Virus record (IMG/VR): IMGVR_UViG_2711768009_000009
DNA from: a virus
Lineage: Duplodnaviria > Heunggongvirae > Uroviricota > Caudoviricetes
Strand: one strand, 5' to 3'
DNA: 43,679 nucleotides
The notes beneath the pieces were generated by a model that saw only the letters and a list, made by a program, of their open reading frames with translations, was not told the origin of the DNA and made no database searches. This document shows, one piece after another, positions 8,845 to 36,692 of the stretch; positions within the stretch are counted from its first letter, which is position 1; each line of letters starts with the position of its first letter. The position numbers were made by a program, and so were the translations under genes.

Positions 8845-9411
8845 TCACGGTACTTTTGGTGACGGAGCTGGTGAGGCAGGAAAATAACGATAAAGGGTGG
8901 AAAGGCCAATATCAAATATCAGTGCGATTTGTTTACGGGACTCGCCATTAGCCAGCAAACGGGCGATTTGCTCCCGCTCTTTCTCTGTCAGTTTCTGAGG
9001 TCTGCCGCCATGACGCCCCTGAGCACGGGCAGCAGCAAGACCCGCGCGTGTACGTTCAATAATGAGTTCCCGCTCCATTTCCGCCAGCGCGCCCATTATA
9101 TGGAAAAAGAAACGTCCCATGGGAGTGGATGTATCAATATTGTCCGTAATGCTGCGGAAGTTAACGCCGCGTTGCCGGAGTTCTTCTGTTAAAAGGACAA
9201 GGTGCTGCATACTGCGTCCAAGGCGATCCAGTTTCCAGACCAGCAGGGTATCCCCTGGCCGGAGTCGCTTTAATGCGCGTTTAAGTCCGGGACGCTCCCT
9301 TGTCTTACCGCTTATTCTGTCTTCGAAAAACAGCTCACATCCTGCACATTCCAGCGCATTTCTTTGTAGCGCCGTATTCTGGTCATTTGTTGACACCCTG
9401 ATATACCCAAT
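8845..9411 (-). CDS. gin: Gin/Hin/Pin-family serine DNA invertase (188 resolved codons; start codon lies in the adjacent N-run)
   Basis: IGYIRVSTNDQNTALQRNALECAGCE...VWKLDRLGRSMQHLV...MGRFFFHIMGALAEMERELIIERT... is a near-canonical Gin sequence with the catalytic Ser motif. Confidence 0.9.
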   Translation of the reverse strand: MGYIRVSTNDQNTALQRNALECAGCELFFEDRISGKTRERPGLKRALKRLRPGDTLLVWKLDRLGRSMQHLVLLTEELRQRGVNFRSITDNIDTSTPMGRFFFHIMGALAEMERELIIERTRAGLAAARAQGRHGGRPQKLTEKEREQIARLLANGESRKQIALIFDIGLSTLYRYFPASPAPSPKVP

Positions 9412-9668
9412 NNNNNNNNNNNNNNNNNNNNNNNNNNNNNNNNNNNNNNNNNNNNNNNNNNNNNNNNNNNNNNNNNNNNNNNNNNNNNNNNNNNNNNNNN
9501 NNNNNNNNNNNNNNNNNNNNNNNNNNNNNNNNNNNNNNNNNNNNNNNNNNNNNNNNNNNNNNNNNNNNNNNNNNNNNNNNNNNNNNNNNNNNNNNNNNNN
9601 NNNNNNNNNNNNNNNNNNNNNNNNNNNNNNNNNNNNNNNNNNNNNNNNNNNNNNNNNNNNNNNNNNNN
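9412..9668. other. Unresolved sequence (257 N) at the expected gin-proximal inversion crossover site
   Basis: N-run directly upstream of gin and adjacent to the alternative tail-fibre segment. Confidence 0.9.
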
Positions 9669-9871
9669 CCGCCATAAGACTGGGGTCGGTGACCGCACAT
9701 ATGCCCGGAACATGGGAAAGCTGGGATCTGAATCTGGGGGGCGGCAATGTTCTTACCGGAATTAAAGTACAGGATGTCGGTAAGAATACGGCAGATAACG
9801 TCGGCGGCGTGTATTACCGGCCGTTGCAGTATCTGTTAAATGGAGCATGGGTGACGGCTGCAAGTATATAA
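9669..9871 (+). CDS. Alternative tail-fibre C-terminal segment (S'v-like), 66 resolved codons on the opposite strand; silent in this orientation
   Basis: Post-gap part of ORF 9062..9871; ends ...NVGGVYYRPLQYLLNGAWVTAASI*; convergent with the S/U genes, as expected for the second variable cassette of an invertible segment. Confidence 0.4.
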
Positions 9872-25496: not shown

Positions 25497-25576
25497 GTCA
25501 GTGTACGCTTAACTGGTAAAGTCGGTGCCTGCCTCCGGGTGGATCATGTATGCGGGTTCGACCCCCGCCACTGACC
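25497..25576 (+). other. tRNA-like partial cloverleaf in the F-G intergenic region: 7-bp acceptor-type stem plus T-arm with GGGTTCGACCC loop; no anticodon arm
   Basis: GTCAGTG (25497-25503) pairs with CACTGAC (25569-25575); GCGGG-TTCGACC-CCCGC hairpin at 25552-25568. Confidence 0.3.
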
Positions 25577-28482: not shown

Positions 28483-30149
28483 TACCAGCCCCCCCGATCA
28501 AATTCATGATATGCCTCATCGTCATCACGATAACCGCCCTCCATTGCCCGCGACCGCTCCTGTAGCGCCTGACAGGCTGATTCATCCAGGATGAAGCCCT
28601 CCATGTATGACGCCCGGTTTGCCATACAGAGCGCCACGGCAAAATCACCATGGCGGCGGGCGTTCGCAGCCGTTGCGTTCTGGTCCTTCGTGCGCCCCTT
28701 GTCGATTTGCGGGATACCATTCACTACCTTCACATGGCGCAAATCATCAAGCGTGGTCTGATGGCGGGCGACGAGGATATTCTGATCTTCAAACTCGGCT
28801 TTCAGTTTTGGCATCCACTCGCCGTACCACTTCGGCGACAACATCACGCAGTCGATGATGTCCGGGCCAAAGGCCAGCAGTGCGGCCTCTGCCAGATAGC
28901 CGCCGTTACCGGTGGCGTCGAACGCCGCACCGACCAGCGCCGGAACGCGGGTCAGGATGTACATCATCACCTGTTCCTGCTGGGCATACGGCAGGTTGCG
29001 CAGCTCCACGCGAAACACCTCGCGCTTTGCCAGGGATTCGGTGATTTCCAGCAGCACAAAGCAGGACAGGTCACCGGTGCGGGCAAAGTCTTCCCCGAAG
29101 CTGAAGCGGGAACGGGGATTTAATTTCTCTAAAAGCGGTTTTAAATGTTCTTCACACCAGGTTAAAACTTCCGATTCACGCAGCCATGCGGCACGGCTGA
29201 TGAAGTTGTCCGGGGCTTCAAACGTCAGAATCGGGATGTCGCGGATCATCGCCATTTCAATAAGCGCGTGGGGGATATAGGCACCGCCGGATTTTTTCGG
29301 GATACAGCCGTATTCCTCGTCGGCATCCTCACGGGTCGGGGCGTTTTTGTAGAGATCATCACGCCATTTCTGCTCGCTTTCCGGTGACCATTCCTGATCG
29401 GTGACGTAACAGATACGACGGTACAGCCCGTCCGCAATGGCATCATCCAGGGTTATGCGGTGGACGCTGTAATCCTTGCGCCCCTCGCGGGCTTCCTGAA
29501 TGTACTGATTAAACAGATTATCGACGCCGTTATGCGTGGAGATAATACGCACGCGCGCGCCCCACATAGTGAGCGCCATTGCCGCCTTGAGAAGCTCATC
29601 CAGTGACTCGTGGAACGCGGCTTCATCAATCACCACATCCCCCTGAAGGCCGCGCAGGTTTGACGGACGGGAAGACAATGCCTGAATTTTGAATCCACTG
29701 TTCGGAAAGCGGATCATGTAGGTCAAAATTTCTTCTTTTTTATCCCGATCCCAGAATGTCTGCTCATACACATCAGCATCTGCCAGCTGGTTAAAGGCAC
29801 GGGAGAACAGCGCGCAGGCAGAAATATATTCCAGCGCCATCTCCTGCTTTGATCCCACATAAAACACATTGCGGCCACCACGACGCTTCGGTTTTGCAGC
29901 AGTAATGACGTTACGCCCGGCTTCCGCCCAGGTAAGACCGGTGCGGCGGGATTTCTCCGCGATGCAGACCTGACTTTCATCTGCAAACCAGCGGGCCTGA
30001 TAATCCAGAAACACCGGCATATCACCGGGCAAATCAAGGCTGTCCGGCACATCCACGCCCAGCAGGGCTTTTTCACCTGACAGATCAATTTTGCGGGGAG
30101 GCGTCATTTGCATCAGTGAAGGCGACGTTTCTCTGGCTTTGTTCATCAT
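28482..30149 (-). CDS. Terminase large subunit, Mu gp28-like (555 aa)
   Basis: ORF track; ...GDVVIDEAAF... Walker-B-like motif; size and position. Confidence 0.85.
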   Translation of the reverse strand: MMNKARETSPSLMQMTPPRKIDLSGEKALLGVDVPDSLDLPGDMPVFLDYQARWFADESQVCIAEKSRRTGLTWAEAGRNVITAAKPKRRGGRNVFYVGSKQEMALEYISACALFSRAFNQLADADVYEQTFWDRDKKEEILTYMIRFPNSGFKIQALSSRPSNLRGLQGDVVIDEAAFHESLDELLKAAMALTMWGARVRIISTHNGVDNLFNQYIQEAREGRKDYSVHRITLDDAIADGLYRRICYVTDQEWSPESEQKWRDDLYKNAPTREDADEEYGCIPKKSGGAYIPHALIEMAMIRDIPILTFEAPDNFISRAAWLRESEVLTWCEEHLKPLLEKLNPRSRFSFGEDFARTGDLSCFVLLEITESLAKREVFRVELRNLPYAQQEQVMMYILTRVPALVGAAFDATGNGGYLAEAALLAFGPDIIDCVMLSPKWYGEWMPKLKAEFEDQNILVARHQTTLDDLRHVKVVNGIPQIDKGRTKDQNATAANARRHGDFAVALCMANRASYMEGFILDESACQALQERSRAMEGGYRDDDEAYHEFDRGGW

Positions 30150-30394
30150 GCTTTACCTGTCAGAATGCTTTTGATTCGGGACTCAAGCTCTTCAGTCATC
30201 ACGTCCACGCCGCTCAACTCATCAGTGGCAGCCTCTGCCAGCAGCGAATGCAGTTGTTCCAGGGATATTTCCCCGGCAATGCTGAGTTCAGTCAACTCAC
30301 GACATACCTTTATGGTTTCAGGAGGTAACTGTGTTGCAAGACTGAATGCTTTCTGATGGGCACTGCTCATCAGTGAGCGGTTATCTGTTGCCAT
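30146..30394 (-). CDS. Hypothetical 82-aa protein whose last ~28 residues duplicate the C-terminus of the upstream small-terminase-like protein
   Basis: ORF track; ...AATDELSGVDVMTEELESRIKSILTGKA vs ...AVTDELRGVDGMSEQIEFRIRQMLLGKA; DNA also ~85% identical over this stretch. Confidence 0.5.
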   Translation of the reverse strand: MATDNRSLMSSAHQKAFSLATQLPPETIKVCRELTELSIAGEISLEQLHSLLAEAATDELSGVDVMTEELESRIKSILTGKA

Positions 30395-30988: not shown

Positions 30989-31279
30989 TTACCCCCTTGC
31001 GCGTGGTTTCTTCACACCCGGAACGGTGGCGCGGCCTTCCGCCACATCCTGACCCCGGCCGGTCAGTTCAGCGATGAAATAACCGTTAACAAGCGTGCGC
31101 TTACGCACCAGTCCCTGCTCGGCAAGCCAGGCAATGTGGGTATGAACGGTGTCGCGGGACACGCGGTGACCGTAATCATCCAGGCAGTCCTGAAGCACGG
31201 ATTCGCCCAGTTCGCCGTTGTAATCCGCCAGCGACCGCAGAATGACAAGACGCTGATCTTCAGTAATGAAATCACTCAT
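30989..31279 (-). CDS. Mu gp26-like small protein (96 aa)
   Basis: ORF track; position only. Confidence 0.5.
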   Translation of the reverse strand: MSDFITEDQRLVILRSLADYNGELGESVLQDCLDDYGHRVSRDTVHTHIAWLAEQGLVRKRTLVNGYFIAELTGRGQDVAEGRATVPGVKKPRARG

Positions 31280-31583
31280 TGTGTTTTTTCCTTACAGCCT
31301 GCTCCAGCAGCAGTTCGTTCTGATGGGAGACGGATTTCAGGGTGGCATTGGTGGCCTTAAGCTCACCGCGCAGGGTGGTGATTTCGATATTGAGTCTGTT
31401 CACCTCCTGCTGCGTGGGCAGGCCGGAAATCCGGCTCTCCACCCGCTCAACCCGGTCGGAGAGTTTTTCAAAGGCCTCGCGGGGGACAAAGGTTTTGCGC
31501 ATCAGCGCCATGAAGATCCCCCCGGCTGTGGCCGTTGCCGACAGGATCGGCACGACATAATCTTTAACGATGCTGACCCACAT
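31272..31583 (-). CDS. Membrane protein with N-terminal TM helix and coiled coil, Mu gp25-like (candidate endolysin release factor), 103 aa
   Basis: ORF track; hydrophobic N-terminus VVPILSATATAGGIFMALM; position at the end of the lysis cassette. Confidence 0.5.
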   Translation of the reverse strand: MWVSIVKDYVVPILSATATAGGIFMALMRKTFVPREAFEKLSDRVERVESRISGLPTQQEVNRLNIEITTLRGELKATNATLKSVSHQNELLLEQAVRKKHNE

Positions 31584-31791
31584 GACCGGCCTCCATGATG
31601 TTCTGGCAGTTCACACAACGGATGGCATCCGGCACGGCAACCAGACGGGCAGCCGGAATGTCACCCCCGCAGTCCGCGCATACACGCCTGCCCGGTGTCT
31701 CCGCCACCCGGCGCTTACGTGTCAGCCGGTCACAAAGGGCGCGTTCTGTTGCACGCTCCATGACTGCCTGAGCACAATCTGAATCATCCAT
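31564..31791 (-). CDS. TraR/DksA-family C4 zinc-finger protein (75 aa from internal ATG MDDSDCAQ)
   Basis: ORF track 31564..31857; CxxC...CxxC pattern RVCADCGGDIP...IRCVNCQ typical of TraR/DksA. Confidence 0.65.
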   Translation of the reverse strand: MDDSDCAQAVMERATERALCDRLTRKRRVAETPGRRVCADCGGDIPAARLVAVPDAIRCVNCQNIMEAGHVGQHR

Positions 31792-31801
31792 ACCTTTTTC
31801 C

Positions 31802-32173
31802 TTACTTCGTCTTTCCTGCCGGAACAGCAGTCGTTCCGGCCATATCAGTAAATTCATGCTGTCGCTGTGTCTCCAGACGGCGGATGCTGGCCTTGTCCAC
31901 GTTGCAGTTTTTAATCACCGCCAGCAGTTGCAGGTTGTAAGTGACCGATGCACCAAACGTGAACGGCTGCGGCGCGGGAGGGACCAGGCAGTCAGCCAGC
32001 CATTCAGCGGGGATCGGCACCGGCTTCACCGGCACGTATTTCACAGACGGCCCGCCGCACCCGGTCAGCCACATCATCAGGCACAGGCACAGCGGCAGCA
32101 GGCACCGTTGCCAGTGACCGGCGGACAATGCTCTGCTGTTCCTCGCTGTGCTGCATGTTCTGCTGTTTTTCAT
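31802..32173 (-). CDS. o-spanin (Rz1-like outer-membrane lipoprotein), Pro-rich, starts inside the i-spanin gene in another frame; start uncertain
   Basis: ORF track 31802..32284; lipobox LTGC after hydrophobic stretch, followed by VKYVPVKPVPIPAEW...PPAPQPF. Confidence 0.6.
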   Translation of the reverse strand: MKNSRTCSTARNSRALSAGHWQRCLLPLCLCLMMWLTGCGGPSVKYVPVKPVPIPAEWLADCLVPPAPQPFTFGASVTYNLQLLAVIKNCNVDKASIRRLETQRQHEFTDMAGTTAVPAGKTK

Positions 32174-32354
32174 TCGTGGCCGCCTTGCTGATTTGTGAAA
32201 TGAGTTGCAGGGTGCGTTGCTGGTTTGCCAGCACCAGACGGGCTTCGTCCCGTTCACGCACAAGCACATGATTATTGTCCTCAAGGCGCTGCGTCTTCTG
32301 GTGCATTCCCCATACCACGGCAGCCAGCACGCTCATCACCCCCAGCGCCGCCAT
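32004..32354 (-). CDS. i-spanin (Rz-like), N-terminal TM helix plus coiled coil (116 aa from internal ATG with GGAGG RBS)
   Basis: ORF track 32004..32525; MAALGVMSVLAAVVWGM TM segment followed by charged helical region. Confidence 0.6.
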   Translation of the reverse strand: MAALGVMSVLAAVVWGMHQKTQRLEDNNHVLVRERDEARLVLANQQRTLQLISQISKAATNEKQQNMQHSEEQQSIVRRSLATVPAAAVPVPDDVADRVRRAVCEIRAGEAGADPR

Positions 32355-32466
32355 ACAGCCTCCGGCAATCAGGGCCGGTAAGGGATTGTTCACCGCAGAC
32401 ACAGCACACCCCGCAGCAGCACAACGGCACACAGCAGCGCAATCATGAGCGGTCGCCAGAAGCGGT

Positions 32467-32967
32467 TCAGACTTTCGGCAAATCGTAACGACATAACCAT
32501 TCATCCGCCGAACGGCGGGCCTCAAGACCGGGGAGTTTTACCCCCTTTGAATAAATCCAGCGGATATACTGCTTACAGGACGCGGGCATCTGCCCGGCAT
32601 TGATAAGGCGCAGGAGCGTGGAGTTGCGAAAGTTCGTTTCACCGGCCCAGAAAATCCAGGAGGCCAGCGCCACCGTCTGACCACGGGTAAGCGGCACCTG
32701 AACATGACGATCGATAGCCGCAAAGGCCCATTTCATGTCCTTTTCCAGCAGCTCCAGACACTCTTCATCAGTTTTTGTCATCCCCGGTTTCACATCCGGG
32801 CCGGTATGGCCGTAACAGATGGTGGGGGTGCCGGTGGGATCAATGTACGTGGTGTTTTCTTTCCCTTCCCAGTAGCCGGTGTAGTGCGTGGCAATGGTGA
32901 ACGTCCCGGCTCCGGCCAGAACAAGGGCAATCAGCTTTTTACGCAGGGGTGCGGGGAGTTTTGGCAT
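32467..32967 (-). CDS. SAR-type endolysin, GH24 (T4-lysozyme-like) with N-terminal signal-anchor (166 aa)
   Basis: ORF track; hydrophobic LIALVLAGAGTFTIA then catalytic motif YWEGKENTTYIDPTGTPTICYGHTG. Confidence 0.8.
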   Translation of the reverse strand: MPKLPAPLRKKLIALVLAGAGTFTIATHYTGYWEGKENTTYIDPTGTPTICYGHTGPDVKPGMTKTDEECLELLEKDMKWAFAAIDRHVQVPLTRGQTVALASWIFWAGETNFRNSTLLRLINAGQMPASCKQYIRWIYSKGVKLPGLEARRSADEWLCRYDLPKV

Positions 32968-33038: not shown

Positions 33039-33461
33039 TCAGAAAAGCCGTGGCTGCGTGCGTTCCTGATGCAGGCGACGCTGGTTGCGGATAACGGAGT
33101 AAATCTGCGTCTCTGACATCTGGTAGTGGCGGCGCAGGGTTTCAATTTTTTCGCCCTGGCTCCAGCGGGAAAAAATTTCATTATTGCGCAGTTCGGTGAA
33201 AAGGGATTCACCGACCGGGAGATAATAACCACGCCCGCCCATGTACCCGGCCTGTGCGGCTGCAACCTTACGGGCAAGCATTCCCGCCTGAGCAGGTTCA
33301 ATCCCCTGACGGTGCAGTTCAGCACTGATCACATCAACCAGGTCCCGCAGCGTGCCGGGCCAGTTCTTTTTCAGCTCATCATCAGGAATATCATCCAGAC
33401 GGTCAATCAGCGCGTGCAGCTGTTCGCTGTCACCAAACATGCTCATCTGTGTTTCAGCCAT
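33039..33461 (-). CDS. Mor/C-family transcriptional activator (140 aa); by position and size the late-gene activator C
   Basis: ORF track; C-terminal ...GGRGYYLPVGESLFTELRNNEIFSRWSQGEKIETLRRHYQMSETQIYSVIRNQRRL resembles the Mor/C HTH region. Confidence 0.75.
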   Translation of the reverse strand: MAETQMSMFGDSEQLHALIDRLDDIPDDELKKNWPGTLRDLVDVISAELHRQGIEPAQAGMLARKVAAAQAGYMGGRGYYLPVGESLFTELRNNEIFSRWSQGEKIETLRRHYQMSETQIYSVIRNQRRLHQERTQPRLF

Positions 33462-33503: not shown

Positions 33504-33527
33504 AAATCCCGCGCTGTGGCGGGATTT
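33504..33527 (-). terminator. Strong intrinsic terminator of the early operon (9-bp stem AAATCCCGC/GCGGGATTT, loop of 6, then U-tract on the minus strand)
   Basis: Minus-strand RNA reads hairpin followed by UUUUUAUUUUAAA; lies between the gemA-like stop and the Mor/C-family start. Confidence 0.6.
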
Positions 33528-34044: not shown

Positions 34045-34066
34045 TATCGTGGCTCCATAAAAAATG

Positions 34067-34086
34067 GGCGGTGTTACCGCACCGCC
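34067..34086 (-). terminator. Intrinsic terminator-like hairpin (stem GGCGGTG/CACCGCC, loop 6) with U-tract on the minus strand, upstream of the gemA-like gene
   Basis: Minus-strand RNA reads GGCGGUG-CGGUAA-CACCGCC followed by CAUUUUUUAUGG. Confidence 0.5.
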
Positions 34087-34114
34087 ATGTCAATTAACAT
34101 AAAAGGAAAAATCT

Positions 34115-34354
34115 ATGTCAGATATAAAAAATGCACTTGATGTTGCCGCATTCACAATGGCTGGAAATCTTATGGTAACCCTGTTCGATAAGGGGCTGAT
34201 TTCCCGTGAGGAGGCAATACATATTATCAATCTCGCTCAAAAAAACTCTACCCCGGAAAATGCAGAAGATATCCAGGATGGCTCATATATTAATACCGAC
34301 TGGCATTTCGACAATCTCCGGGCCTGTATGGGGATTACCGCTGAAAAAGATTAA
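34115..34354 (+). CDS. Hypothetical protein (79 aa) on the opposite strand within the early operon; AT-rich moron
   Basis: ORF track; ATG with AAGGA RBS; ~41% GC versus ~55% in flanking prophage DNA; 3' end overlaps the convergent 95-aa gene by 20 nt. Confidence 0.45.
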   Translation: MSDIKNALDVAAFTMAGNLMVTLFDKGLISREEAIHIINLAQKNSTPENAEDIQDGSYINTDWHFDNLRACMGITAEKD

Positions 34355-34622
34355 AAATTTTTGCATAATGTTCAGATGTAAGAATTGCTGAACCATCAAC
34401 ACCGAGCCTACGGCGAACGTATTCCTCGCGGGCTATTTTATTATCCAGAGATACAGCATCCTTAATCAGGTTAATCTCCCGCTCCATTATCAAAAGGGCT
34501 TCTCTGGCTGCAAGATTTTCTTTTATCGCATATTCGATAATGTCCCGCATACGTTCAAGCATGCCGATTTTAGCCAGTTCTTCGTCGATAGATTTAGGCG
34601 CAAATTTGATTTCTTTTTCCAT
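34335..34622 (-). CDS. Hypothetical protein (95 aa from ATG MEKEIKF...), AT-rich island
   Basis: ORF track 34335..34637; GAGGA RBS; start codon 1 nt after the stop of the zinc-ribbon ORF. Confidence 0.5.
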   Translation of the reverse strand: MEKEIKFAPKSIDEELAKIGMLERMRDIIEYAIKENLAAREALLIMEREINLIKDAVSLDNKIAREEYVRRRLGVDGSAILTSEHYAKIFNLFQR

Positions 34623-34623
34623 A

Positions 34624-34767
34624 TTATTCATCCTCACAATTTATACATGCAGTGTCGTCGCCCATATCGCAGTGGTTACATTTTATCTCACCACAATGTG
34701 GGCACTCTTTCAGATACTCCGGGTCCTCATTTCCACAGGTGGGACATTCAACAATTTGCTCATCCAT
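34624..34767 (-). CDS. Small zinc-ribbon protein, 47 aa with four CxxC pairs (MDEQIVECPTCGNEDPEYLKECPHCGEIKCNHCDMGDDTACINCEDE); below the ORF-track length cutoff
   Basis: Hand translation of the minus strand; ATG overlaps the stop of the upstream 110-aa gene (ATGGATGA) and its stop sits 1 nt before the next ATG. Confidence 0.55.
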   Translation of the reverse strand: MDEQIVECPTCGNEDPEYLKECPHCGEIKCNHCDMGDDTACINCEDE

Positions 34768-35092
34768 TATGTATCCCCTGTAATTCCGGCAAGGCCGAAA
34801 GATGGCACCAGTGCGTCACCTGTCCGTCCTCATCTTCAAGGCAGGCTCCGGTTTCTTCATCAATAAAAAAGCCTTCATACCCCATATGGCCGATGCGCAG
34901 TTCCTGTTGGTCACCATACTGAACAATCAGCACGACAGCCTCCATATCAGGCGGAAATGCGTCATCCAGTGAATGCCAGGGATAACCGCGCAAATCCCCG
35001 AAATAAACGCCGGTCAGCGTTCCGCCACAGAGCGGCATTCCGGCGGCACACACAAGAGGTTCATCTGATTCAACAAATAAGGTCGTTATCAT
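34760..35092 (-). CDS. Hypothetical acidic early protein (110 aa)
   Basis: ORF track; translationally coupled to neighbours. Confidence 0.5.
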   Translation of the reverse strand: MITTLFVESDEPLVCAAGMPLCGGTLTGVYFGDLRGYPWHSLDDAFPPDMEAVVLIVQYGDQQELRIGHMGYEGFFIDEETGACLEDEDGQVTHWCHLSALPELQGIHNG

Positions 35093-35640
35093 GGCGTTAA
35101 CTCCCGTAATACAGCGTCCTCGGCAGTCCGGCGACGGTAATAAACTGCGTGAGCAGAATGTTCAGATATTCCAAACTTTTCGCCAATTTCCCGGAATGAC
35201 AGACGGCGTGGGTAATCGGAATCACGCAGCTCACGTATAAGACGTACATCATCATCAGATATGCGCGTGCCGGGGCGTAACTCTCCGCACTTTGTTAATC
35301 CAGCACCAATCATTCCTGCCCGACATCTGACAGAATCTTTATTACGTCCGAGATATTCTCCCATTTGCTGGCAGGTCATTGTTCTGGCATTTTTTCGAAT
35401 AAACTTATCTTCATCAGGTGTAAATCTTGGGTGTTTATATTTCAGTAACTCCGGGTATGAACTGCGCAATACACCAGTCCGGTTATATACAGCCCAGACA
35501 GTTCTTTTTATTCTGGCAGCAATATCCTTAACCGGGGTGGATGAATAAAGCGCAATCAGCAGCGCATCTTCTTCAGGTGTCCACGGACGGACATGAGCGG
35601 GGGCGCGACCTTTTAGTCCCATGGGTTGTAATTTCATCAT
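35089..35640 (-). CDS. Putative DNA-binding early protein (183 aa): two Myb/SANT-like repeats plus C-terminal Mor/C-like HTH
   Basis: ORF track; WTPEEDALLIALY...IAARIKRTVWAVYNR and FTPDEDKFIRKNARTMTCQQMGEYLGRNKDSVRCRA repeats; C-terminal LSFREIGEKFGISEHSAHAVYYRRR. Confidence 0.5.
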   Translation of the reverse strand: MMKLQPMGLKGRAPAHVRPWTPEEDALLIALYSSTPVKDIAARIKRTVWAVYNRTGVLRSSYPELLKYKHPRFTPDEDKFIRKNARTMTCQQMGEYLGRNKDSVRCRAGMIGAGLTKCGELRPGTRISDDDVRLIRELRDSDYPRRLSFREIGEKFGISEHSAHAVYYRRRTAEDAVLRELTP

Positions 35641-35643
35641 GCA

Positions 35644-36159
35644 TCACCCCCTGACTCGCTTTTCAGCAGCATAAAACTCATCAGACAGTATTTCGGTCAT
35701 TTTCTGTTTTGCGGGTTTTACGCCGCACTGAAGGTAAATCACATCGTCAACGCAGAACCACTTCACAGGGCCAAACAGGATTGCCGAGAAATCAATACCC
35801 AACCAGAACAACAGCGCATCGGTTCTGGCATACGTGACGGGCGAATATTCACGCCACAGACTGTTCAGTTCATCAGAGGCAACACGCAGGGTTTTAGGGA
35901 TACGTGATGTGCGCGGTGTGCAGCTCCAGCCATTCGACGCAGTCGGTTTTCGCCATAAGTCGCGATGAAAAGGATATTTGTCCTCCGTAAAACGCAGTCC
36001 CTTAAAGTAAAATCCACTGATACCGGATACAAATACCGACCGGCACGCAACATTCAGCACGGCCTCAAGGCGTTTTGCCTCATCCTTAACTTTCTGGCAG
36101 TCCTGCTGGTATTTTTGCCACGCAGCCAGCGCGGAAGGGTTTGATGTTTTAAAGAACAT
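35644..36159 (-). CDS. Hypothetical early protein (171 aa)
   Basis: ORF track; no recognisable motif. Confidence 0.5.
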   Translation of the reverse strand: MFFKTSNPSALAAWQKYQQDCQKVKDEAKRLEAVLNVACRSVFVSGISGFYFKGLRFTEDKYPFHRDLWRKPTASNGWSCTPRTSRIPKTLRVASDELNSLWREYSPVTYARTDALLFWLGIDFSAILFGPVKWFCVDDVIYLQCGVKPAKQKMTEILSDEFYAAEKRVRG

Positions 36160-36692
36160 TACGCCACCTCCGCAGATATCCCGGCAGGCGCTGCTGTCCG
36201 GTCAACAATCAGGTAGCGCAGAACATGTTCAGTGATATTCCAGCCGCTTAAACCGCAGATAATGACGCCCAGGCGTATGTCGATATACGCCATCACAAAC
36301 TGGGGCACGCCTTCTTTCATGGCCTGCTCATCAACTTCAGCCACCACATAAACGGTTTCACAGGTCAGAACGCCCTGAGCAAATTCCCACGCCATCGACG
36401 GAATATCATGCCCCTCAATCCATGGCAGGGATTTTCTGAAGCCGCACCACTGAACATCATCAGCCGCAGATTCCTGGCTGCATTTGCGACGAACCGGCTG
36501 CACCGGGCGGGGACGCGGAATATCATAAAAACCGTTACATTCCGTCAGCACGCCTGCATCAACCGCATCACGCAGAAAATAAACCATGGAGGATGGCGGC
36601 ATATTCATTTTTTCAGCCAGTACACCGCAGGTCAGGCGGCCATAAATACACAGCCAGTTTTTAACCCCTTCAAGCACTTTTGCATCAATCAT
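36159..36692 (-). CDS. Hypothetical early protein with N-terminal winged-helix-like region (177 aa); preceded by a 14-codon upstream ORF
   Basis: ORF track; GVLAEKMNMPPSSMVYFLRDAVDAGVL HTH-like segment. Confidence 0.5.
   Translation of the reverse strand: MIDAKVLEGVKNWLCIYGRLTCGVLAEKMNMPPSSMVYFLRDAVDAGVLTECNGFYDIPRPRPVQPVRRKCSQESAADDVQWCGFRKSLPWIEGHDIPSMAWEFAQGVLTCETVYVVAEVDEQAMKEGVPQFVMAYIDIRLGVIICGLSGWNITEHVLRYLIVDRTAAPAGISAEVA

Follow-up and report, generated by a model that had tools for sequence, protein, structure and literature searches.

A diverged Mu-type lysis cassette, probably holin-independent, in a Mu-like prophage of Escherichia coli

Introduction

Lysis by phage Mu is holin-independent, as shown by experiment. 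It uses the signal-anchor-release (SAR) endolysin gp22, the spanins gp23 and gp23.1, and the 'releasin' gp25 (Chamblee et al., mBio 2022, PMC9239132). The latter is a membrane-tethered cytoplasmic protein that defines the family DUF2730 and is needed for the release of the SAR endolysin, where residues K6 and K7 of gp22 confer the dependence on gp25 (PMC9239132). The same study found the Mu middle-gene membrane proteins gp19 and gp20 to be dispensable for lysis, and located DUF2730 genes at most five genes downstream of the endolysin in 34/34 transposable phages surveyed (PMC9239132). Here, we analyse a 43,679-nt stretch of viral DNA (Caudoviricetes; IMG/VR record IMGVR_UViG_2711768009_000009), called the window in the following. 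Its positions 31272-32967 (minus strand) read as the late 'lys' operon of a Mu-like transposable prophage of Escherichia coli, i.e., the genes by which it bursts the cell.

Two other arrangements share single elements with this cassette. In the phage 21 and P1-type systems (S21-R21; LydA-Lyz), the endolysin is likewise tethered by an N-terminal SAR domain and becomes active once released to the periplasm. There, however, the release is triggered by a dedicated holin or pinholin through depolarisation of the membrane, while in the window no such gene was found and a DUF2730 releasin homologue is present instead. The LysB/LysC spanins of P2 resemble those of the window in the o-spanin family (PF23793) and in being overlapped rather than embedded, but P2 carries a holin (Y) and an antiholin (LysA) beside its endolysin, and neither is present in the window.

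Results

Comparison with the Mu cassette

The gene order in the Mu record is C, SAR endolysin (22), i-spanin (23), o-spanin (23.1/Mu_55), gp24, releasin (25), gp26 and small terminase (27). The window shows the same order, and all of the respective proteins except gp24 are recognisably homologous, with identities of 40% (C), 39% (gp22), 24% (gp23), 44% (gp23.1), 33% (gp25), 63% (gp26) and 56% (gp27). That is, the cassette has the same neighbours as in Mu, namely a C-type activator upstream and gp26, gp27 and terminase genes downstream. Both cassettes encode a GH24 lysozyme with an N-terminal SAR-like transmembrane domain (TMD) and an E-x8-D-x5-T triad, overlapped i- and o-spanins with the lipobox LTGC, and a small CxxC-x17-CxxC protein in front of a DUF2730 protein with an N-out TMD. 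A holin gene is present in neither.

The differences are as follows. Identities to Mu are just 24-44% within the cassette. Mu gp24 scores below the Pfam thresholds, while the zinc-finger protein of the window is a canonical TraR (Pfam match, D2/D5 acidic N-terminus). The basic cluster in the N-terminal tail of the lysozyme is RKK at 9-11 in the window and KK at 6-7 in Mu. The window has an extra conserved open reading frame (ORF) between lysozyme and i-spanin, here termed orf36, whereas in Mu gene 23 overlaps gene 22 directly and leaves no such space. Furthermore, the signal peptide of the o-spanin is about 10 residues longer than that of Mu, and the window lacks the gp18-gp20 genes and has a single Mor/C-family gene where Mu has two.

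Every sequence-level feature of the Mu releasin-type system is found in the cassette. Our reading is that it mediates Mu-type lysis without a holin, as shown for Mu itself, to which we assign a probability of roughly 0.82 given the sequence comparisons presented here. In this respect it is a diverged member of the releasin-type holin-independent system described in 2022 and otherwise essentially ordinary. Two additions go beyond the known system, i.e., a conserved pairing of TraR and releasin genes and the micro-ORF orf36, of which only the latter could change the understanding of the system.

Endolysin and releasin

The lysozyme gene (32467-32967, minus strand) matches PF00959 (E 1e-36) and PHROG 7 'endolysin' (E 1e-51). 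The N-terminus of its product reads MPKLPAPLRKKLIALVLAGAGTFTIATHY (first 30 residues MPKLPAPLRKKLIALVLAGAGTFTIATHYT), where a basic cluster R9-K10-K11 directly precedes a TMD at residues 12-29 (LIALVLAGAGTFTIATHY). Read from the sequence, Gly, Ala or Thr occupy 9/18 positions of L12-Y29, and the best 19-residue Kyte-Doolittle window scores 1.39 vs. 1.09 for Mu gp22. The protein aligns with gp22 over residues 1-155 (39% identity), including the N-terminal segment, which aligns with the gp22 SAR domain. The catalytic residues E34-x8-D43-x5-T49 are invariant in the alignment with E37/D46/T52 of gp22. The protein thus combines the sequence features of a SAR endolysin, i.e., a muralytic domain with intact catalytic residues and a weakly hydrophobic, Gly/Ala/Thr-rich TMD after a short basic tail, and these support its assignment as a SAR-type GH24 endolysin homologous to Mu gp22.

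The DUF2730 gene (31272-31583, minus strand) matches PF10805 with E 1.2e-22, where residues 6-97 cover profile positions 3-101 of 102. Its product is 33% identical to Mu gp25 (type I of PMC9239132) over 94 aa (E 1.6e-17) and, judged by this homology, appears to be the counterpart of the Mu releasin. A TMD at residues 10-28 is followed by R29-K30, for which the positive-inside rule predicts an N-out/C-in topology, and the helical remainder is a predicted cytoplasmic coiled coil. The gene is the third annotated gene downstream of the endolysin (fourth when counting orf36), i.e., it lies downstream as in all phages surveyed in PMC9239132. Scanning genome contigs with a DUF2730 alignment returned one locus only, in Citrobacter braakii.

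Spanins

The i-spanin gene (32004-32402, minus strand) matches PHROG 214 'Rz-like spanin' (E 1.5e-29) and is a homologue of Mu gp23, with which its product shares 24% identity (E 7e-6) and the C-terminal PVPxxVADR motif. The predicted topology is N-in/C-out with an N-terminal TMD and a periplasmic coiled coil; the TMD reaches a 19-residue Kyte-Doolittle value of 2.22 at residues 53-71 of the longest ORF version. For the translation start we favour GTG 32402 over the alternative ATG 32357. This GTG lines up with the ATG start of the homologues of one related group (lineage B) and equals the start called by the Prokaryotic Genome Annotation Pipeline (PGAP). The long 173-codon version of the ORF, starting from 32525, is unsupported. 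Among RefSeq records the annotated start varies, giving products of 132 or 142 aa.

The o-spanin gene (31802-32173, minus strand) encodes a lipoprotein homologous to Mu gp23.1 (44% identity) and P2 LysC. It matches PF23793 LysC (E 3.8e-17) as well as PHROG 3001 and 456, both 'Rz-like spanin'. The gene begins in a different frame, 170 nt upstream of the i-spanin stop, and runs 202 nt past the i-spanin end, i.e., the architecture is 'overlapped'. Counted from ATG 32173, the position of which is conserved in relatives, the Cys of the lipobox LTGC is residue 39. It is followed by Gly at +2 (no Asp), and the mature part is Pro-rich. In the RefSeq/PGAP annotation, on the other hand, the o-spanin (lysC) has 72-80 aa and starts after the lipobox Cys in all five records examined (L002, L034, L035, L183, L184). 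The annotated protein is therefore truncated, such that signal peptide and acylated Cys are lost.

The two genes show the sequence features expected for two-component spanins, i.e., a TMD plus helical periplasmic domain in the i-spanin, and a lipobox and gene overlap for the o-spanin. This supports their assignment as a spanin pair of overlapped architecture, as far as homology can tell.

An earlier note on this stretch, made from its letters, had placed five genes here and likened them to Mu genes 22-25. All five are present on the minus strand, and the likeness extends gene by gene over 22, 23, 23.1 and 25 into 26 and 27 in the same order. Its signal-anchor-like segment in front of the GH24 motif is confirmed by PF00959, the weakly hydrophobic TMD and the alignment with gp22, and its Pro-rich LTGC lipoprotein starting within the i-spanin gene in another frame agrees with the spanin family matches and the Mu homology. 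The protein with TMD and coiled coil that it had put at the gp25 position is indeed the DUF2730 homologue of gp25, but the mechanistic key, i.e., the releasin, had gone unnamed.

Proposed course of lysis

By analogy with Mu, lysis would proceed in four steps. First, the Mor/C-family activator encoded upstream would turn on a late promoter in front of the lysozyme gene, as homology suggests. Second, the lysozyme would be exported via Sec and tethered to the inner membrane by its weakly hydrophobic SAR domain, where it would be enzymatically restrained; the R9-K10-K11 cluster on the cytoplasmic side would hold it in place. Third, accumulating DUF2730 protein would promote the exit of the SAR domain from the bilayer, such that active muramidase is freed and the peptidoglycan degraded. 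Finally, the complex of i-spanin and o-spanin spanning the periplasm would fuse or disrupt the outer membrane.

Several observations weigh against this picture. SAR behaviour, releasin dependence and spanin function are all transferred from Mu proteins of 24-44% identity. The residues R9/K10/K11 are shifted by three positions relative to K6/K7 of Mu, and the dependence on the releasin could differ. DUF2730 proteins also accompany non-SAR endolysins (PMC9239132), and the function of the family may be broader than that of a 'releasin'. The prophage itself might be defective, though every ORF examined is intact. Finally, the conserved membrane peptide encoded by orf36, which is absent from Mu, could be a lysis timer, such that the label 'holin-less' would be incomplete.

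Search for a holin

We enumerated every ORF of at least 25 aa in the prophage and scored its hydrophobic segments. No small multi-TM holin-like ORF was found on the late-gene strand in the whole prophage, and neither gp19 nor gp20 of Mu has a homologue there. The earlier note had reported that no classical holin is visible and had named a holin-like multi-TM ORF as the finding that would speak against its view. The scan gave none, which agrees with that statement, while the conserved single-TM orf36 keeps the 'holin-less' label from being fully settled. It is the only candidate that could qualify this label, and it lacks the appearance of a holin or pinholin: the peptide has 34-36 aa, one short TMD, no charged C-terminal tail and no family match.

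orf36 (32390-32500, minus strand) has 36 codons, or 34 from an invariant ATG at the third codon, and encodes the predicted bitopic micro-membrane protein MVMSLRFAESLNRFWRPLMIALLCAVVLLRGVLCLR. The ORF begins within the codons for the conserved EWLC of the lysozyme, such that 34 nt are shared up to the lysozyme stop. At the other end, 13 nt are shared with the i-spanin gene, the fourth codon of which is overlapped by the orf36 stop. The maximum 15-residue Kyte-Doolittle value is 2.65.

Conservation and frame comparison suggest that orf36 is a gene. The frame is intact, and its start and stop positions are shared, among 26 unique sequences. These belong to four lineages: that of the window, one that also occurs in Citrobacter braakii and has an 84% identical lysozyme, L030, and L091/L092. 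Relative to the window, lysozyme and orf36 are 55% and 61% identical in L030, and 49% and about 42% in L091/L092, where orf36 has 37 codons. orf36 thus seems to evolve at about the rate of the lysozyme. When the three frames are compared over the 75 nt outside all other accepted genes, amino-acid identity is highest for that of orf36 in 6/6 lineage pairs (window vs. L091: 10/25, compared with 4/24 and 6/24 for the other frames). By Fitch parsimony, codon positions 1/2/3 changed 30/15/33 times (p about 0.02-0.04), a pattern that fits a hydrophobic peptide, while the flanking lysozyme shows 52/37/174, as expected. The statistical support is modest. DNA homology of the lineage-B and L030 loci with the window stops exactly at the orf36 stop (query position ~165 of 271), which indicates that orf36 travels with the lysozyme across a recombination boundary.

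Two other causes of the conservation were considered and rejected. For RNA structure, the folding z-score of the region is +0.74. An N-terminal extension of the i-spanin from ATG 32504, which would fill the 110 nt between lysozyme stop and i-spanin TMD, is contradicted by stops of the i-spanin frame over orf36 in L030 and L091 and by the missing ATG in lineage B. Moreover, variability in the orf36 region is lowest at third positions of the i-spanin frame, which also speaks against such an extension.

orf36 is missing from Mu and from the Mu-proper lineage L094, and it is truncated to 14 codons in the degenerate relative L090. Beyond this enterobacterial group it was not found, with no orf36-like counterpart in any of 55 non-Mu phage loci whose lysozymes are 38-52% identical. 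Neither Pfam nor PHROG gives a match, phmmer returned 0 matches among 1.84e9 representative proteins, and the ORF is unannotated in 5/5 RefSeq records examined. The blank in the protein databases would be due either to gene finders not calling the peptide or to its being too short to score. A single metagenome scan with a degenerate orf36 pattern yielded E. coli-type copies and chance matches only, with no added lineage. Overall, we consider orf36 to be probably a real, translated small membrane protein, inherited together with its lysozyme type in enterobacterial Mu-like prophages. Routine annotation misses a conserved membrane-peptide micro-ORF within the cassette and truncates the o-spanin ahead of its lipobox.

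Some variants of the locus were observed. In L016/L049 (IMGVR_UViG_2526164665_000023), the lysozyme stop is lost through an insertion of 2 nt, and the lysozyme is thereby fused in frame with the last 27 residues of orf36 (…DLPKSLNRFWRPLMIALLCAVLLLRGVLWLR), which is either a natural variant or an assembly error. In L090 (IMGVR_UViG_2773858062_000010, 3501-5000), a related Mu-like cassette appears to be decaying: the lysozyme frame reads beyond the usual stop, only ~51 aa remain of the TraR-like ORF, and the match to DUF2730 falls into two pieces. The non-Mu metagenomic phage contigs L124, L125 and L143 share another conserved ORF of 54-56 aa directly after the lysozyme, which overlaps the lysozyme stop by 18 nt and has a C-terminal TMD (…RRATDI…WLTRWGPKILL…). 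This ORF could represent the N-terminal portion of a spanin or some other membrane micro-protein encoded after the endolysin.

Alternative readings

The best-surviving alternative concerns the role of orf36. As an unrecognised fifth gene of the lysis cassette, it could encode a minimal membrane-active peptide that triggers or times the release of the SAR endolysin, either through membrane depolarisation in the manner of a pinholin or type I toxin, or by acting on the releasin as antagonist, helper or modulator, such that the cassette would not be truly holin-less. Its frame conservation in four lineages at about the lysozyme rate and its strongly hydrophobic C-terminal segment are in line with this idea. 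The same holds for its location inside the cassette with overlaps of the kind tied to translational coupling with lysozyme and i-spanin, and for its co-inheritance with the lysozyme; it is also the only non-embedded TM micro-ORF on the late strand. On the other hand, the single TMD is short (12 uninterrupted hydrophobic residues, 18 when counting an internal Arg), and a peptide of 34-36 aa is smaller than any characterised holin known to us. Mu and L094 lyse without orf36, and the copy in L090 is truncated. The codon-position signal is only modest, translation is predicted, and no homologue of known function was found in Pfam, PHROG or the representative proteins. We therefore regard a lysis-timing role as unlikely, though it would matter most: if true, some members of this 'holin-less' Mu-type family would possess a hidden regulator of lysis that acts on the membrane, which would bear on how holin-less phages schedule lysis.

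Less probable is a reading in which the N-terminal hydrophobic stretch of the lysozyme serves as a conventional signal peptide that is cleaved off, or else as a stable anchor, which would imply a different control of its activity and another role of the DUF2730 protein. The segment is somewhat more hydrophobic than that of Mu, its basic residues are placed differently from K6/K7, and the occurrence of DUF2730 proteins next to non-SAR endolysins (see above) would fit as well. Yet it aligns with the experimentally proven SAR domain of gp22, with which it has a Gly/Ala-rich core in common (LAGAG vs. IAGGG), and about 50% of its residues are Gly, Ala or Thr. In addition, no obvious AxA cleavage motif after a normal h-region can be read from the sequence, and the entire cassette is syntenic with Mu.

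A holin function supplied from outside the cassette, i.e., by the host or by the early-region proteins encoded at 35644-36159 and 36159-36692, is most improbable, since these proteins, though each has one segment with a 17-residue Kyte-Doolittle value of 1.8-1.9, are 171 and 177 aa long, belong to the early operon rather than to the late genes and show one internal hydrophobic stretch without holin-like architecture, while the analogous Mu proteins gp19 and gp20 are dispensable for lysis (PMC9239132) and have no homologue here.

The TraR-like zinc-finger protein

We now turn to the gene at the Mu gene 24 position (31564-31791, minus strand) within the cassette read as Mu-type. It encodes a TraR/DksA C4 zinc-finger protein of 75 aa that matches PF01258 (44.7 bits vs. 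a cut-off of 24.9) and PHROG 54 'DksA-like zinc-finger protein' (E 3.7e-17). The residues C38, C41, C59 and C62 of its CxxC-x17-CxxC motif are invariant in the alignment. The protein aligns end to end with the F-plasmid TraR of the cryo-EM and crystal structures of RNA polymerase with TraR, 5W1S and 6N57 (phmmer E 4e-4). Within an acidic N-terminal helix, its D2 and D5 are at the positions of TraR D3 and D6 (5W1S_M, 6N57_M). F TraR and its phage homologues (lambda Orf73, P2, VHML, VP882; PMC9239242, PMC6970531) share with it the length of ~73-75 aa, the acidic residues at D3/D6 of the N-terminal helix and the CxxC-x17-CxxC zinc ribbon. They differ in being encoded in early or transfer operons, whereas the window protein is part of a late lysis/packaging operon of a Mu-like phage. 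Sequence identity to F TraR is low, and RNA polymerase binding of the window protein is a prediction.

The pairing with the DUF2730 gene is widespread. Based on tblastn searches of both proteins against 50,697 phage records, TraR and DUF2730 genes stand side by side in this order in Vibrio phage martha 12B12, nine Vibrio phages of the Nahant collection, Klebsiella phage Kp4866-3 and Pasteurella phage Pmp9. The annotation of Shewanella phage MuM16-2 shows the same pair, as do the IMG/VR relatives L086-L092 and L094. While the endolysin type varies in the surveyed phages (amidase, DUF5675, muramidase), the block TraR-DUF2730-gp26-gp27 is constant. A TraR-type protein is thereby a conserved neighbour of the releasin gene in Mu-like phages of several genera, which answers the question of the earlier note whether the gene is conserved at this position in Mu relatives.

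This neighbourhood also offers a testable identity for Mu gp24. The latter has no Pfam match (scores below thresholds) but keeps the CxxC-x17-CxxC spacing and the acidic N-terminus. Over the zinc ribbon, hhalign aligns it to a profile of the syntenic TraR proteins with a probability of 68% (E 4.7e-5). Since the direct BLASTP comparison with the window protein is marginal (E 0.05-0.1), the link rests on profile comparison and synteny. L094 encodes a canonical TraR although its gp26 and gp27 are 82-84% identical to those of Mu. Mu gp24 is thus plausibly a degenerate member of the TraR family; it goes unmentioned in PMC9239132.

Phage TraR homologues including lambda Orf73 bind RNA polymerase, inhibit promoters of rRNA and ribosomal-protein genes, and raise the phage yield (PMC9239242). 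Given this function and the alignment with F TraR, the window protein is most likely an RNA polymerase-binding modulator of host transcription and no lysis protein. Co-transcribed between spanins and releasin, it would bind the secondary channel of the host RNA polymerase and shift transcription off rRNA and ribosomal-protein promoters late in infection, as do Orf73 and other phage homologues. The C4 zinc-finger gene that the earlier note had included in the lysis cassette is present, but it probably has no lysis function; we consider it most likely to be conserved as a passenger of the TraR-DUF2730-gp26-gp27 block, with no effector role in lysis.

Operon layout and late activation

Throughout the cassette, neighbouring genes overlap at their start and stop codons or are separated by a few bases, and the starts of the TraR and DUF2730 genes are preceded by Shine-Dalgarno motifs. 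Downstream, the start of a gp26-like winged-helix gene (30989-31279, minus strand; 63% identity to Mu gp26; PHROG 436) overlaps the DUF2730 stop by 8 nt. The overlaps and Shine-Dalgarno motifs indicate one operon that runs on into the gp26-like, gp27-like and terminase genes.

Upstream lies the gene of the Mor/C-family late transcription activator (33039-33461, minus strand; PF08765, E 6.7e-31), the product of which is closer to Mu C (40% identity) than to Mu Mor (28%). It presumably switches on a promoter in the 71-nt gap in front of the lysozyme gene. No sigma-70 consensus promoter was found between the activator and lysozyme genes, as expected if the late promoter depends on the activator. 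No repeated activator box common to the lys upstream region and other late intergenic regions was found at up to 3 mismatches, and aligning the lys upstream regions with Mu Plys gave no further information. The prophage contains a single Mor/C-family gene and no gp18-gp20 segment. It seems that Mu's two-step cascade of Mor and then C is collapsed here to one activator. Between GemA and the activator gene, a strong terminator-like hairpin followed by a T-run is found at 33504-33527 (minus strand).

Between the small and large terminase genes, an ORF of 82 aa (30146-30394, minus strand) matches PHROG 30922 of unknown function. Over its last 30 residues it shares 53% identity with the C-terminal end of the gp27-like small terminase (ELSGVDVMTEELESRIKSILTGKA vs. 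ELRGVDGMSEQIEFRIRQMLLGKA), such that it looks like a partial duplication of the tail of the latter. It is absent from the O157-type relatives, while Vibrio martha and Shewanella MuM16-2 have small ORFs in the same slot.

Prophage setting and distribution

The prophage genes of the window lie on the minus strand, and near-identical DNA (99.6%) is found in E. coli chromosomes. These copies are annotated with Mu transposase, AAA ATPase (MuB-like), Gam, GemA/gp16, Mor-family activator, lysozyme, LysC, TraR/DksA and DUF2730 genes, as well as Gp27, a portal-like DUF935 protein, and head, tail and baseplate genes. The prophage itself carries Mu transposase, GemA, Mor/C and portal genes. DNA similarity to phage Mu is detectable over genes 26/27 only.

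A 2.3-kb segment around the cassette occurs in 231/5426 complete E. coli genomes (~4%). Most of these 231 copies are 80-90% identical, and O157:H7 strains are among the carriers. The SAR-endolysin/releasin pairing thereby extends to a prophage group present in about 4% of complete E. coli genomes, O157 strains included.

RefSeq annotates a 'tRNA-OTHER' at ~25497-25576 (plus strand), opposite to the phage genes and between virion-morphogenesis genes. ARAGORN reports no tRNA in the window, and Rfam gives nothing at gathering thresholds.

An AT-rich island at 34050-35100 (GC content ~44% vs. 55-58% around it) directly upstream of GemA is probably a moron or accessory insert. Its small ORFs have no family matches; among them are one of 47 aa with three CxxC pairs (34624-34767, minus strand) and one of 79 aa (34115-34354, plus strand). 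In O157-type relatives, other genes take this place.

The left part of the window corresponds to the right end of Mu (gin/mom region) with an adjoining virulence-type effector. Genes at 299-2014 (plus strand), 3802-4260, 4479-5411, 6705-8759 and 8845-9747 (all minus strand) encode an IpaH-like type III effector with LRR_TTSS and NEL E3 ligase domains, a fragment of an IS66 transposase, a Mom-family protein, a SASA-esterase/DUF6645 protein that may be a tail spike or fibre, and a Gin-like serine invertase.

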